From Candidatus Daviesbacteria bacterium (GTDB lineage Bacteria > Patescibacteriota > Microgenomatia > Daviesbacterales > UBA10151): DNA of 61,390 nt. How positions within the stretch are numbered: position 1 is the stretch's first letter; each line of letters begins with the position of its first letter. The notes under the pieces are model-generated. The model did no database searches. It was not told the DNA's origin and saw nothing but the letters and a program-made list of their open reading frames with translations. This document shows positions 34,425-40,850 of this stretch, piece after piece. The stretch spans positions 1 through 61,390 of the forward strand of contig JACOXI010000005.1 of NCBI GenBank assembly GCA_016176335.1, given 5' to 3'. The position numbers were made by a program, and so were the translations under genes.

Positions 34425-34436
34425 GAGTTAAGTATA

Positions 34437-34524
34437 AAGAATTTAGAATTAAGAATCTAGAATGCAGAATTAAATTCAGAATGTAAAATTTTTATTCTGA
34501 ATTCTGAACTCTAAATTCTAAATT
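34437..34524. repeat. Inverted heptamer arrays forming a long hairpin
   Basis: WAGAATT-like left arm, ATTCTRA-like right arm; core AATTCAGAAT/ATTCTGAATT. Confidence 0.85.
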
Positions 34525-34527
34525 AAC

Positions 34528-35124
34528 CTAGTATTCCTTCCTACCTTCTAACGCCCTTGATAAGGTGGTCTCGTCTGCATACTCTATATCAGACCCGACC
34601 GGTAATCCTCTGGCAATTCTGGTCATTGTTACTCCCAGTGGTGATATTAATCTTTGAAGATACATAGCAGTTGCCTCTCCTTCCATGGTGGGATTTGTTG
34701 CCAAAATTATTTCCTTGACTTTTCCATTTTTGAGGCGAGGCAACAGCTCCCTGATATGTAACTCACCCGGTCCGATATTTTCCAGAGGGGAGATCACTCC
34801 GTGTAATACATGATATAAACCTTTATAGTTTGCCTTCTCCAATGCCAACACATCCAAAGGATTCTCCACAACCATTAAAGTTTGTCTATCGCGGGATTCA
34901 TCAGAACAGATACTACAAGTGTCTTCCTCTCCTATGTTAAAACAAATGGAGCAGATTTTGGTTTTCTCTTTCATCTCAAGAGCGGCATGTGCCAGGCTTT
35001 CAGCTTGTTCGTAAGGAGCATGGAGTAAGTAGAATGTTAGTCTTTCTGCGGTTTTGGGACCAATTCCCGGAAGTCTTTCAAAAGCCTCAATCAAATTTTG
35101 TATCGGTTTTGGAACTCGTGCCAT
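34528..35124 (-). CDS. recR: Recombination mediator RecR
   Basis: LPGIGPKTAERL, CSICFN, YHVLHG, ATNPTMEGEATA. Confidence 0.98.
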   Translation of the reverse strand: MARVPKPIQNLIEAFERLPGIGPKTAERLTFYLLHAPYEQAESLAHAALEMKEKTKICSICFNIGEEDTCSICSDESRDRQTLMVVENPLDVLALEKANYKGLYHVLHGVISPLENIGPGELHIRELLPRLKNGKVKEIILATNPTMEGEATAMYLQRLISPLGVTMTRIARGLPVGSDIEYADETTLSRALEGRKEY

Positions 35125-37767: not shown

Positions 37768-39369
37768 TTAATTAACAGTATCCGAATTAAAAATTTCCGC
37801 AGCGGCTCTGATAATCTCATCATCTGCTGCAACTTCTATATTGGCTACATCCTCCGCTTTTGCCGGCCTGTTCCCCAAAACTGTGGAAACCTTGATAATT
37901 CTTCCCAAAATATCCGACAGTATTGACTCTAACAGTTCCCTGTTTTTTGGGGCTTCCAAGATTCTTTGATGAAATGAATACGGAACTTCCACAATAACAG
38001 CTGTATCAGTACATTCTGTGATATTAATAGATCGAAGCAGAGCTTCCAAAGAAAAATTATACGGCCTGATAGTTTCACAAACATAGGTCCATTTTTCCTT
38101 AAGTTTTTGGATATCGTCGTTAGACTGCGGATATTGGATGATAGGAGATTTCAAGCTCCCATCTTTTACCTCAATTATCTTCAATTTTCTATCTTCTACC
38201 TCTAGCTTCGATCTTCTATCATCTACCGTCTTATTCGTTTCCTCTCCGCATATTTCAATAACCGCTAATTCCAATGGTAATGATGGGATTGATGTAGTCT
38301 TTAACTTTTCATAAGATTTTTGAAAAATATTTAAACTACTACTCAAATCTTGGGCAGTAAACTGATTGGTTAGAGTCAGAAGAGTCGAATATTGCCCGCT
38401 GCCATATTGCGGCTGAACAAGAGACGGGCCCAGATCATTTTTAATGAGTACCAACGCACGCATTATTTCCATCACTGCTCCTGTAAATAATTTAAAGTCA
38501 ATACCAAATTTCTCTAAATTGCTAATTAATAAAATTGAGCTTTTAACATCATGCTTAGCTAAGTTTTCCAATAAACTCAACACCTGCTCAATATCGGTAC
38601 CATGCAGAATTCTCCTGATTTCTGAAGCTTGGACCTTATCACTTATTCCCGATACCTGATCAAGTATCTTAATGGCATCCCTAAAGCTTCCCTGCGCAGC
38701 TGTTTTTAAAATTTGTAGCGCTTCTTCACTTATATCAATTTTTTCAATCTTAATAATTTTCTTGAGCACTTGAGATAATTCTTCTTGTGAGGCCAGTTTA
38801 AAATCCAGTCTTTGGACTCTGGAAAGAATTGTTTGAGGAATTTTCGAGCCTTCAGTTGTTGCCAAAATAAATAGGGCATGCTGGGGCGGTTCCTCTAAAG
38901 TTTTCAAAAGCGCGTTGAAAGCTTCGGGTGTGAGCATATGAACTTCATCAATAATGTATACTTTTTTATTTGCGGCAGTTGGGGCAAGTTTTATTTTCTC
39001 ACGTAAGGACCGAATGTCTTCAATTCCCCTATTTGAGGCAGCATCAATTTCTATTAGATCCAAGTTTGACCCATCGGTAATTGATAAACATGTATCGCAC
39101 CTGTTACAGGGTATATTGTTTATCGTATATCGATTATCGTTTTTGTCTTTACGATTCATGATTAACGATTCACGATTAACGAACTCACAGTTAACCATTT
39201 TTGCCAAAATTCTGGCAGTTGAAGTTTTACCGGTTCCTCTTGGCCCCACAAAAAGATAAGCATGAGATAACCTGTTATTTTGAAAGGCAGACATGAGATT
39301 TTTCTTGACAACATCTTGCCCCGTTAAATCATCTAAAGATTTGGGACGGTACTTTAAATAATAAGTCAT
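37768..39369 (-). CDS. dnaX: DNA polymerase III gamma/tau
   Basis: KYRP, GPRGTGKTS, EIDAASNRG, DEVHML, NALLKTLEEPP, TILSR; two repeat-derived inserts. Confidence 0.97.
   Translation of the reverse strand: MTYYLKYRPKSLDDLTGQDVVKKNLMSAFQNNRLSHAYLFVGPRGTGKTSTARILAKMVNCEFVNRESLIMNRKDKNDNRYTINNIPCNRCDTCLSITDGSNLDLIEIDAASNRGIEDIRSLREKIKLAPTAANKKVYIIDEVHMLTPEAFNALLKTLEEPPQHALFILATTEGSKIPQTILSRVQRLDFKLASQEELSQVLKKIIKIEKIDISEEALQILKTAAQGSFRDAIKILDQVSGISDKVQASEIRRILHGTDIEQVLSLLENLAKHDVKSSILLISNLEKFGIDFKLFTGAVMEIMRALVLIKNDLGPSLVQPQYGSGQYSTLLTLTNQFTAQDLSSSLNIFQKSYEKLKTTSIPSLPLELAVIEICGEETNKTVDDRRSKLEVEDRKLKIIEVKDGSLKSPIIQYPQSNDDIQKLKEKWTYVCETIRPYNFSLEALLRSINITECTDTAVIVEVPYSFHQRILEAPKNRELLESILSDILGRIIKVSTVLGNRPAKAEDVANIEVAADDEIIRAAAEIFNSDTVN
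38119..38226. repeat. Degenerate heptamer array in frame in the dnaX linker
   Basis: CTATCTTCTACCTCTAGCTTCGATCTTCTATCATCTAC and flank; encodes DDRRSKLEVEDRKLK.. Confidence 0.6.
39118..39187. repeat. Inverted heptamer arrays in frame in the dnaX zinc-binding region
   Basis: TATATCG ATTATCG ... ACGATTC ATGATTA ACGATTC ACGATTA; encodes VNRESLIMNRKDKNDNRYTIN. Confidence 0.8.
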
Positions 39370-39370
39370 A

Positions 39371-39784
39371 TTAAGTATGGTGAATTCCCAAAAGATGGTC
39401 TAATCCATGCTCCACCAAATCTCTAAGCTCCTCATCAACAGATATCCCATCTAAACTGGCATCTTCCAAGGCTTGCGGGTATGAGATGACAATATCTCCC
39501 AGTCTTAAAATTTTATCCGGAGATGCCACAAACCCAACTCTTGGTATGTGTTGCAAACTGACAGGATTTGGGTCCTCCAAAGCAAAAGACAAAATGTCTG
39601 TTGTGGAATCTATCCCGCGATACCTTCTGTTTAACTCATGCATTTTCCGATCGCCCACGATACTTATACCAATCTCAACTCTGCCAAAAATTCGATGCCT
39701 CTGCAGTACTTCCAAAACAACGGACCTGATTGCTATTTTATTAATACTATACCTTGGATCTGAAGAAACAACGATATTTATCAT
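39371..39784 (-). CDS. ybeY: rRNA maturation endoribonuclease YbeY
   Basis: LNRRYRG, TDILSF, LGDIVIS, HGLDHLLG. Confidence 0.95.
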   Translation of the reverse strand: MINIVVSSDPRYSINKIAIRSVVLEVLQRHRIFGRVEIGISIVGDRKMHELNRRYRGIDSTTDILSFALEDPNPVSLQHIPRVGFVASPDKILRLGDIVISYPQALEDASLDGISVDEELRDLVEHGLDHLLGIHHT

Positions 39785-40221
39785 GACAATTTTTCTTTCA
39801 CTAATGCACTTACCACTCCTCCATCAGCCTGACCTTTAACTTTACCCATCACCATACCCATCACTCTTCCCATATCCTGTATGCTACTTGCCCCTAATTC
39901 TTTTATAGACTCTTCCACAATCTTAGTCAATGCCTCCTCCGAAAGCTGAACCGGAAGATAGCTTTCCAAGACCTTTCGCTCCGCCTCCTCCTTTAAAGCT
40001 TGATCCTCTTTCCCCCCCAGCCTGAAACCCGCTGCTGCTTCTGATCTTTTTTTAACTTCTTTTTGGGCAATAATAATTACTTCCTCATCCGAAAGATCGC
40101 CACCCTTGGCAATTTGAGCATTTTTCACCTCTGACAATAAAAGACGCAGAGTTGAAGTTTTTATCTCGTCTCTTCGCAGTTGAGATTGTTTTAGATCTTC
40201 TTGTATCTTATCAATTAACAT
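39781..40221 (-). CDS. GatB/YqeY domain protein
   Basis: TLRLLLSEVKN, YLPVQLSE, DMGRVMG, ADGGVVS. Confidence 0.95.
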   Translation of the reverse strand: MLIDKIQEDLKQSQLRRDEIKTSTLRLLLSEVKNAQIAKGGDLSDEEVIIIAQKEVKKRSEAAAGFRLGGKEDQALKEEAERKVLESYLPVQLSEEALTKIVEESIKELGASSIQDMGRVMGMVMGKVKGQADGGVVSALVKEKLS

Positions 40222-40223
40222 TA

Positions 40224-40421
40224 TTAATTTCCGAAACGTCGGGACCTCATGATCTTGCGTCTTTTTTCAGCTAAGTATTCCTGTCTTTTTTCGGAAGGTT
40301 TTTTATAAACCGTTCTATCCCGAATTTCTTGAACCAAACCTTCGGCAATAACCCTTTTTTGAAATTTCCTGATCACTGAATCCGTACTTTCACCCGGATT
40401 TGCCTTTACTACAATTGACAT
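40224..40421 (-). CDS. rpsU: 30S ribosomal protein bS21
   Basis: GESTDSVIRKFQK, YKKPSEKR. Confidence 0.9.
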   Translation of the reverse strand: MSIVVKANPGESTDSVIRKFQKRVIAEGLVQEIRDRTVYKKPSEKRQEYLAEKRRKIMRSRRFGN

Positions 40422-40426
40422 AATGA

Positions 40427-40502
40427 AGCTGTCAGCCTTCAGTCGTCAGTCTTCAGACTTTAAAAATTTAATCTGATAGCTGAAAGCTGATGACTGATAG
40501 CT
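40427..40502. repeat. Inverted heptamer arrays forming a hairpin in the rpsU leader
   Basis: GCTGTCA GCCTTCA GTCGTCA GTCTTCA ... TCTGATA GCTGAAA GCTGATG ACTGATA. Confidence 0.85.
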
Positions 40503-40517
40503 CATATCACCTCCTTT

Positions 40518-40850
40518 TTAAATGAATTTCTTCCATTGTCCCCCTAATAGATGAAAATGTAAATGAGGAACATGCTGCGCTTTACCGCCATTTACAACTA
40601 CACGATATGCATCATCTGTTAACTTATTCTCCAAAACCAACTTATTAACAATAGCATAAATCTCACCAAGTAGTTTTGTTTGCTCTTCCCCAATTTCTCC
40701 TATTCCCCCTATATGCATCTTTGGCACAATGAGTAGATGTAAATCAGCAGAAGGATTGATGTCTGGAAAAACCACTAAATTTTCTGACTCGTAGTTAAAG
40801 TCTTTGGGAATTTCTTTCTTGATAATCTTACAAAAAATACAATTATCCAT
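40518..40850 (-). CDS. HIT-family nucleotide hydrolase
   Basis: CIFCKII, HLLIVPK, QHVPHLHFH. Confidence 0.96.
   Translation of the reverse strand: MDNCIFCKIIKKEIPKDFNYESENLVVFPDINPSADLHLLIVPKMHIGGIGEIGEEQTKLLGEIYAIVNKLVLENKLTDDAYRVVVNGGKAQHVPHLHFHLLGGQWKKFI

Follow-up and report, generated by a model that had tools for sequence, protein, structure and literature searches.

The rpsU gene, which encodes ribosomal protein bS21, lies on the minus strand of a 61,390-nt stretch of Candidatus Daviesbacteria DNA (contig JACOXI010000005.1 of assembly GCA_016176335.1; the window), and in its leader an extended Shine-Dalgarno (SD) sequence is separated from the start codon by a 76-nt hairpin made of heptamer repeats. 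Comparison with relatives indicates that this SD is an ancestral feature of the lineage and that the hairpin is a copy of a dispersed heptamer-hairpin family, placed at gene junctions, rather than a dedicated regulatory structure. On balance we lean towards a model in which the hairpin is tolerated at rpsU because its folding would keep the SD and the AUG adjacent as a split ribosome-binding site (RBS), with initiation proceeding across the folded hairpin. Throughout, G000 denotes the genome of the window and C3, C5 and C7 its contigs; the other G and L codes denote genomes and loci of relatives.

Architecture of the rpsU leader

The TAA stop codon of the upstream HIT-family gene (40520–40518) directly abuts the SD (Table 1). 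The 11-mer AAGGAGGTGAT at 40516–40506, with A40517 added, gives 12 nt of complementarity to the 16S rRNA tail of relatives, AUCACCUCCUUU. The rpsU start (ATG, 40421–40419) agrees with the conserved N terminus of the protein, MSI(V/I)VKA in an alignment of 30 relatives and MSIVVKA in G000. The original prediction, made from the sequence of the window, had delineated the SD, an upstream open reading frame (uORF), the hairpin and the rpsU ATG, and its coordinates are exact to the base. It had also described the rpsU ATG as lacking an SD of its own, and the 20 nt preceding this codon indeed pair with the anti-SD at only −4.8 kcal/mol.

The distance from GGAGG to AUG is 88 nt in G000, compared with 7–17 nt in hairpin-less relatives. 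The 5′ arm of the hairpin reads (AGCTATC)(AGTCATC)(AGCTTTC)(AGCTATC)AG and is followed by an A/T loop and the complementary 3′ arm, both arms being tandem heptamers of the form NNNTCAG (period-7 score 0.62). Weak outer pairs lengthen the structure to 40423–40505. The SD–AUG spacer alone folds at −31.2 kcal/mol with 4 + 1 nt unpaired, or with ~10 nt unpaired when the weak closing pairs are open, which is in keeping with an earlier estimate of about 8 unpaired nt after the hairpin is looped out. In a context of 131 nt the predicted energy is −36.3 kcal/mol (z = −3.5), and 1 of 200 shuffles folds as well. Five independent metagenome runs from groundwater contain the leader at 100% identity, which excludes an assembly artefact.

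Table 1. Coordinates of the rpsU leader and flanking features in the window.
Feature	Position	Strand	Basis or remark
Extended SD, AAAGGAGGTGAT, 12 nt complementary to 16S 3′ tail	40506..40517	-	Sequence, duplex energy, conservation
Heptamer-repeat hairpin, 76 nt	40427..40502	-	Fold, period-7 array, inverted repeat
rpsU (bS21, 65 aa)	40224..40421	-	Pfam PF01165, E 6.5e-10; PDB bS21 matches; 30-relative alignment
uORF, 19 codons plus TGA (encoding MSYQSSAFSYQIKFLKSED)	40446..40505	-	ATG 40505-40503, stop TGA 40448-40446
HIT-family gene, 110 aa	40518..40850	-	Open reading frame (ORF) list; Pfam PF01230 HIT, E 2e-16; PF11969
YqeY-like gene downstream of rpsU	39781..40221	-	Start 2 nt past rpsU stop; without SD
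Weak promoter-like match TTTACA-17-GACAAT, inside 3′ end of HIT gene	40535..40563	-	Consensus scan

Conservation of the extended SD

Two sets of relatives were surveyed, one of 30 genomes covering 24 genera of the family and 5 other families of the class, and one of 67 named Daviesbacteria and Gottesmanbacteria species. In the first set, AAAGGAGGTG lies upstream of rpsU in 29 of the 30, normally followed by a U-rich spacer and then ATG, TTG or GTG; in 23 of the 30 the order is GGAGG, a U-rich spacer of 7–17 nt and the start codon. In the second, the rpsU SD pairs at −14 kcal/mol or better in 66 of the 67 species, with a spacer of 7–16 nt in 55. Such a survey had been set in advance as the test of whether the SD matters at this gene, and the SD is conserved in both sets. 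The neighbouring genes tig, yqeY and ybeY have a weak SD or none in the same genomes. At the HIT gene, most genera of the clade with the HIT–rpsU arrangement (loci L003–L012) carry a moderate SD (−9 to −11 kcal/mol), which is lacking in G000 and G009, the two genomes with a heptamer hairpin in the rpsU leader.

The 16S 3′ end, the other comparison proposed at the outset, is canonical where it could be read: the 16S genes of three family members (G024, G012 and G005) terminate in GGAUCACCUCCUUUCU, the canonical anti-SD. No 16S gene was detected in the 7 contigs of G000 (estimated completeness 96.9%) by an Rfam SSU search or by conserved 16S and 23S motif probes. Judging from the 16S ends of its relatives, G000 itself presumably also uses a canonical anti-SD.

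Many of the close relatives bear the label 'uncultured Gammaproteobacteria bacterium' in their deposited records (binchicken TPA assemblies). Since their rpsU loci are 80–88% protein-identical to those of named Candidatus Daviesbacteria, this label is probably wrong.

An SD-poor genome with a few very strong SDs

G000 (925 kb in 7 contigs, ~39% G+C) is SD-poor, with a real SD in ~4% of genes. In a set of 652 long ORFs whose ATG is unambiguous, 36 starts versus 10 mock-SD windows pair at −10 kcal/mol or better, and 14 versus 1 at −12 kcal/mol or better. A 400-kb sample of the relative G024 (C1:100001–500000) shows the same scarcity, with 19 versus 8 of 322 starts at the −10 kcal/mol threshold. 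An initial impression that SDs are common, based on many CACCTCCTT matches before ATGs, was overturned by the positional and mock-SD analyses. Against this background, none of the 652 starts reaches the strength of the SD/anti-SD pairing upstream of rpsU (−19.1 kcal/mol); the 11-mer of this SD occurs 8 times in the genome. The top enriched hexamer upstream of starts is TATAAT (~25-fold over background), which peaks 12–15 nt before the ATG and has this position at ~16% of unambiguous starts. Such a position is characteristic of leaderless mRNAs and suggests that these are widespread in this family of the candidate phyla radiation (CPR).

The ribosomal protein and elongation factor (EF) genes for S18, S6, S16, S20, L27, L34 and EF-Tu have no SD, and those for S19, S9 and L21 have moderate ones. 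Besides rpsU, the strongly SD-led genes include rplL, rpsD, groEL, hsp20 and many small ORFs, and other genes reach −13 to −17 kcal/mol. The 9-mer AAGGAGGTG occurs 26 times in the genome, ~18 of them ahead of start codons. The ORFs so led encode mostly small proteins of 45–90 aa (Cys-rich, membrane or AbrB-like), together with an RRM RNA-binding protein, Hsp20 and argG, and could form a distinct strongly SD-led gene set within the SD-poor genome.

An SD of this kind at rpsU recalls the Bacteroidota, among them Flavobacterium johnsoniae, in which an extended rpsU SD goes with bS21 autoregulation (PMC7797042, PMC9976891, PMC13000453), and the original prediction had proposed a similar circuit here. 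The SD would then act as a sensor, with ribosomes that lack bS21, and whose anti-SD is freer, favouring rpsU, and with the hairpin as a passenger or modulator. Both lineages combine an SD-poor genome and a canonical anti-SD (retained here in relatives) with a lineage-conserved rpsU SD of 9–13 bp; the one studied here spans 10–12 nt at −15 to −19 kcal/mol, is the strongest of the genome, and lies within the −14 to −21 kcal/mol reported for rpsU of Bacteroidia (PMC9976891). The neighbours of rpsU and most ribosomal protein genes lack an SD, as such a circuit would have it. However, rpsU is the single outlier in Flavobacteriales, and in G000 it shares a strong SD with the genes listed above, foremost rplL, whose SD is equally extended and is conserved in 28 of 28 relatives. 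Because at least 14 of the 652 long genes and the ~18 AAGGAGGTG-led ORFs have strong SDs, and SD-led genes are conserved, the ribosomes here are probably not 'blind' to SDs and rpsU does not stand alone.

The protein itself also differs. The C-terminal tail of Bacteroidetes bS21 is described as markedly less basic and bears a signature Tyr54 that stacks on A1534 (PMC7797042). All 30 relatives have a strongly basic tail instead (pI 10.1–12.0, net charge +4 to +13), and the sole Tyr of the tail region, Y49, is confined to one sub-clade. If the 7jil_z match is extended without gaps, Arg falls at the Tyr54-equivalent position, in an alignment that is itself tentative. Two further differences are that Bacteroidia are described as relying on upstream adenines, while many mRNAs here look leaderless, and that a hairpin interrupts the rpsU initiation region here. 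Of the proposed circuit, then, the conserved rpsU SD, the canonical anti-SD and the SD-poor genome stand, and the unique strength of the rpsU SD and a Bacteroidetes-like bS21 tail do not. We consider feedback by bS21 unlikely; it concerns the purpose of the SD and is compatible with a split RBS.

A dispersed family of heptamer hairpins

Tandem arrays of period 7 with at least 3 copies number 212 in G000, compared with at most 16 for any other period, and many of them pair up as foldbacks. A palindrome scan of the whole genome at a looser threshold gave 537 matches versus 200 in shuffled sequence, which is a high false-positive rate. At least 8 other loci, on C3, C5 and C7, match the arms of the rpsU hairpin at 85–95% identity, and complete hairpins of the same TCAG family are found at C3:10067–10144, C3:131102–131179 and C7:98752–98826. 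In G009, a hairpin occupies the identical site in the rpsU leader but is built of TTAGTTA units, and its paralogues in that genome are 94%, 90% and 83% identical. The differences between the two leaders (CAG/CTG versus TAG/CTA) at first resemble compensatory changes under selection on an orthologous structure. Since each hairpin has paralogues in its own genome and matches its own genome's family, they instead represent two repeat families and not a conserved rpsU structure.

In metagenomes of the same aquifers, contigs of related organisms have an empty site, GGAGGTGAT-GAATTTAGT-ATG. The best reading of these comparisons is that the rpsU hairpin was inserted into an ancestral SD–AUG spacer, the hairpin-less form being GGAGGUGAU, 9 nt and AUG. 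That the hairpin might be the HIT gene's intrinsic terminator was rejected, as it has no U-tract and terminator-like sites were not found. Heptamer repeats also occur within genes of the window: dnaX (37768–39369, minus strand) has in-frame blocks at 38135–38225 and 39111–39182, one of which encodes the odd segment RESLIMNRKDKNDNRYTINNIP while the other folds as a plus-strand hairpin.

Hairpins between SD and start codon at rpsU, rplL and other genes

The hairpins have a marked position relative to genes. Among the non-coding heptamer hairpins of G000, 11 of 16 end no more than 21 nt upstream of a start codon, typically 2–8 nt; 5 of the 7 copies in G009 end 2–8 nt ahead of an ATG, and the rpsU copy ends 1–5 nt ahead of its ATG. 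The stop codon of the upstream gene is often formed by the first three bases of the hairpin (TAG or TAA). An SD of −8 kcal/mol or better lies immediately 5′ of 6 of 12 start-proximal hairpins, compared with 10% of random windows (binomial p ~6e-4, for a small and hand-curated set).

Hairpins are present in the rpsU leader of 7 of the 30 and 7 of the 67 relatives, and a perfect SD of 10–12 nt is kept in all of them. These include hairpins of unrelated sequence in the rpsU spacer of G012, G016, G022, G024 and G004 and of loci L099, L129, L131, L136 and L089. The unpaired flanks in hairpin-bearing leaders sum to 2–18 nt, and hairpin-less spacers measure 7–17 nt.

The same layout recurs elsewhere in G000. 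At rplL (C7:106738–106833), AAAGGAGGTGA (SD −17.8 kcal/mol) is followed by a TATCGTA-family hairpin and then by ATG; at a GATase_3 gene (C3:131179), GGCGGAGGAAAAT is followed by a TCAG-family hairpin and TTATG; and ahcY (C5:158845) has the same order of SD, hairpin and AUG. In the window, a 117-nt heptamer hairpin at 34430–34546 (AGAATTT/ATTCTAA units, −31.7 kcal/mol on the minus strand) lies between genes of 198 and 140 aa, with the motif AGGAAGGA at its 5′ base and the ATG of the 140-aa gene 5 nt beyond its 3′ base.

The rplL gene served as a control for rpsU. Its extended SD (−13 to −18 kcal/mol in the 28 relatives, loci L045–L074) is embedded in the end of rplJ, and in 10–11 of the 28 a hairpin of 75–140 nt separates it from the conserved MADD... 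start. The inserted elements are of two types, either heptamer foldbacks or of a GTCATCCTGAGCG...GAATGAC type. Because rplL is generally essential, besides being highly expressed, a layout of SD, hairpin and AUG must allow translation, and its recurrence at this gene argues that such translation can be efficient. In the G000 protein (L7/L12, C7:106831–107478), a low-complexity N-terminal extension of ~90 aa (MADDQQKQDQQSEQ...) apparently precedes the Pfam dimerisation domain; relatives share the MADD start.

Junctions that lack an SD, mostly between yqeY and ybeY, were taken as further controls, and 5 of 27 carry structured inserts of more than 40 nt. Given these and the rplL counts, the notion that rpsU is unusually prone to hairpins (7 of 30) was abandoned, and the hairpin is not an rpsU-specific device.

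The uORF

The original prediction had offered coupling through the uORF as one way in which the distant SD could serve rpsU. In the full form of this idea, ribosomes would start at AUG 40505, melt the hairpin over 19 codons, terminate at UGA 40446 and begin anew at AUG 40421. In favour of this, a very strong SD stands immediately before the uORF start, ribosomes translating the uORF would unwind the 3′ arm that precedes the rpsU AUG, and the uORF is in frame with rpsU (starts 84 nt apart, with the TGA between), ending 22 nt ahead of it. The geometry nonetheless speaks against its use. Its AUG is only 4 nt from GGAGG, abutting the 12-bp SD duplex, where real starts in relatives are 7–17 nt away, and it is paired within the closing pairs of the stem, AUGA/UCAU. 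The stop codon neither overlaps nor adjoins the rpsU start, and the 22-nt gap between them holds no SD for re-initiation.

Conservation points the same way. No uORF of more than 8 codons exists in any other hairpin-bearing rpsU leader of the two sets of relatives, the hairpin leader of G009 has no start codon after its SD, and other TCAG-family copies have TAG or TAA where the rpsU copy has ATG. We regard a dependence of rpsU translation on the uORF as highly improbable, and this part of the original prediction is not borne out; the uORF is probably an incidental by-product of the repeat sequence. A fusion of uORF and rpsU by recoding of the TGA was likewise discarded, because TGA is an ordinary stop that ends 239 of 890 crude ORFs and the bS21 N terminus aligns from ATG 40421.

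Proposed initiation across the folded hairpin

The split RBS that we lean towards could have arisen and could work as follows. The ancestral long SD of the lineage would have been retained when a TCAG-family copy landed in the SD–AUG spacer of ~9–10 nt. As a near-perfect foldback, the insert would be transcribed into an RNA stem of ~30 bp, the ends of which would bring the SD at its 5′ base and the rpsU AUG at its 3′ base to within ~5–10 unpaired nt. A 30S subunit anchored by the 12-bp SD/anti-SD helix would then have AUG 40421 placed in its P site, and the uORF would be no more than a by-product, its AUG contributing to the closing pairs. Action across the hairpin was the other route suggested by the original prediction, and it appears plausible; hairpins recur at the rpsU site in other genera.

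Several observations weigh against a split RBS. In the predicted fold GUGAU, a part of the SD, forms weak pairs with AUUAU of the rpsU start region, an arrangement that would inhibit rather than help translation. The intervening structure, of 76–83 nt and ~30 bp, is 3–4 times larger than in the phage T4 cases discussed below. Matches to the leader sequence come from DNA metagenomes only. Overall, the sense strand of the hairpins has no folding advantage over the antisense strand, which points to DNA-level elements and not to selected RNA structures; the rpsU copy folds alike on both (−34.9 versus −34.1), and strand asymmetry in G-U versus A-C pairs, tried as a test of selection on RNA, was set aside as mixed (~5 copies better on the sense strand, 4 on the antisense). 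With ~95% of genes starting without an SD, rpsU could be translated independently of its own. The SD of hairpin-bearing genomes may have been kept merely because insertion is recent, the G009 copy being 94% identical to a paralogue, and RNase III, for which a gene is present, could by cleavage separate the SD from the rpsU ORF.

Taken to their end, these points describe a relic: rpsU would now be SD-independent, possibly with a 5′ end cut by RNase III, and the element would be selfish DNA that does the cell little or no harm. In support of this, SDs are missing from most genes and many genes are apparently leaderless, as the TATAAT peak at −15 to −12 suggests; several hairpins that precede starts are flanked by an SD neither 5′ nor 3′ (for example C7:98752 and C5:183006); and A/U-rich sequence lies ahead of the rpsU AUG. 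The genome encodes an RNase III homologue (C3:90080–90697, E 2e-34), and stems of ~30 bp are classic substrates of this enzyme. The insertions also look recent, so that an unused SD need not yet have decayed. Against the relic stand the persistence of a perfect 10–12-nt SD in every one of the 7 + 7 hairpin-bearing rpsU leaders and the enrichment of SD-like sequence 5′ of start-proximal hairpins over its 10% background. Both ribosomal genes with the strongest SDs, rpsU and rplL, tolerate the layout repeatedly. Moreover, a stable hairpin 1–5 nt from an AUG would normally hinder binding of the 30S subunit where no SD assists it. We consider the relic rather doubtful, and continue to lean towards the split RBS.

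A broader proposal is that, in Daviesbacteria and related Microgenomates, where leaderless or SD-less initiation prevails, SDs of 10–12 nt (at rpsU, rplL, chaperone genes and small proteins) anchor ribosomes strongly enough for initiation across folds of 75–140 nt throughout the lineage, by shunting or a split RBS, such that the spacer would be a safe harbour recolonised by hairpins. The same SDs might in addition mark a regulon of a ribosome subpopulation, for instance one lacking bS21, convergent with Bacteroidota. This proposal is speculative, and we would not expect it to hold.

Promoter-like sequences upstream of rpsU

The consensus scan for promoters returned 4 matches versus 2.4 expected, and the match inside the HIT gene may or may not drive an rpsU transcript. 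In many relatives, a TGGTATAAT-like extended −10 box is found 8–25 nt upstream of the rpsU SD, often within the end of the HIT gene, which suggests that rpsU has a promoter of its own there. In G000 this box is degenerate.

Comparison with known systems

A precedent for hairpins that shorten the path from SD to AUG comes from phage T4, where a hairpin cuts the spacing from 22 to 5 nt in gene 38 and from 27 to 11 nt in gene 25, as shown experimentally (Nivinskas et al. 1999; Malys and Nivinskas 2009, reviewed in PMC3014915). As in these genes, the SD and AUG of rpsU are too distant in primary sequence, a stem-loop would restore the spacing (from 88 to ~5–10 nt, in silico only), and the layout is confined to a subset of related genomes. 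The rpsU case differs from T4 in the size of the hairpin (76–83 nt, and 75–140 nt in rplL of relatives) and in its origin, being a copy of a dispersed repeat instead of a locus-specific structure, with unrelated hairpins at the same site across genera. It also differs in its setting in cellular ribosomal protein genes, where the function of the layout is a prediction from models.

The repeats themselves belong with small dispersed palindromic or heptameric repeats, such as REP/MITE-like elements, the Rickettsia palindromic elements and the cyanobacterial STRR heptamer repeats. Like these, they are short foldbacks in many diverged copies, lineage-specific, and found both between genes and in frame within genes. 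They are unlike them in having arms of tandem 7-nt units and in their preference for the bases just upstream of starts or after stops, including the SD–AUG spacer.

Significance

Two aspects of these findings appear new. Across Daviesbacteria, hairpin elements repeatedly occupy the SD–AUG spacer of rpsU and rplL, which belong to the few genes led by a strong SD, and a lineage that is SD-poor and leaderless-rich nevertheless keeps an extreme SD at rpsU. In the literature searched, no paper was found on spacer hairpins or on the rpsU SD oddity for CPR bacteria. For annotation, the consequence is that predictors of start codons and RBSs will miss or misplace such genes, or call the uORF in their place. 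An SD-poor genome with an extreme rpsU SD is also the oddity behind the model of bS21/anti-SD feedback in Bacteroidota, and the CPR offers an independent lineage in which to ask how general it is. Should the split RBS hold, it would explain how foldback repeats can build up right at ribosome-binding sites and still leave the gene functional. It would also mean that a bacterial SD acts over ~80–140 nt of folded RNA in two highly expressed ribosomal protein genes, far past the 22–27 nt known from T4.

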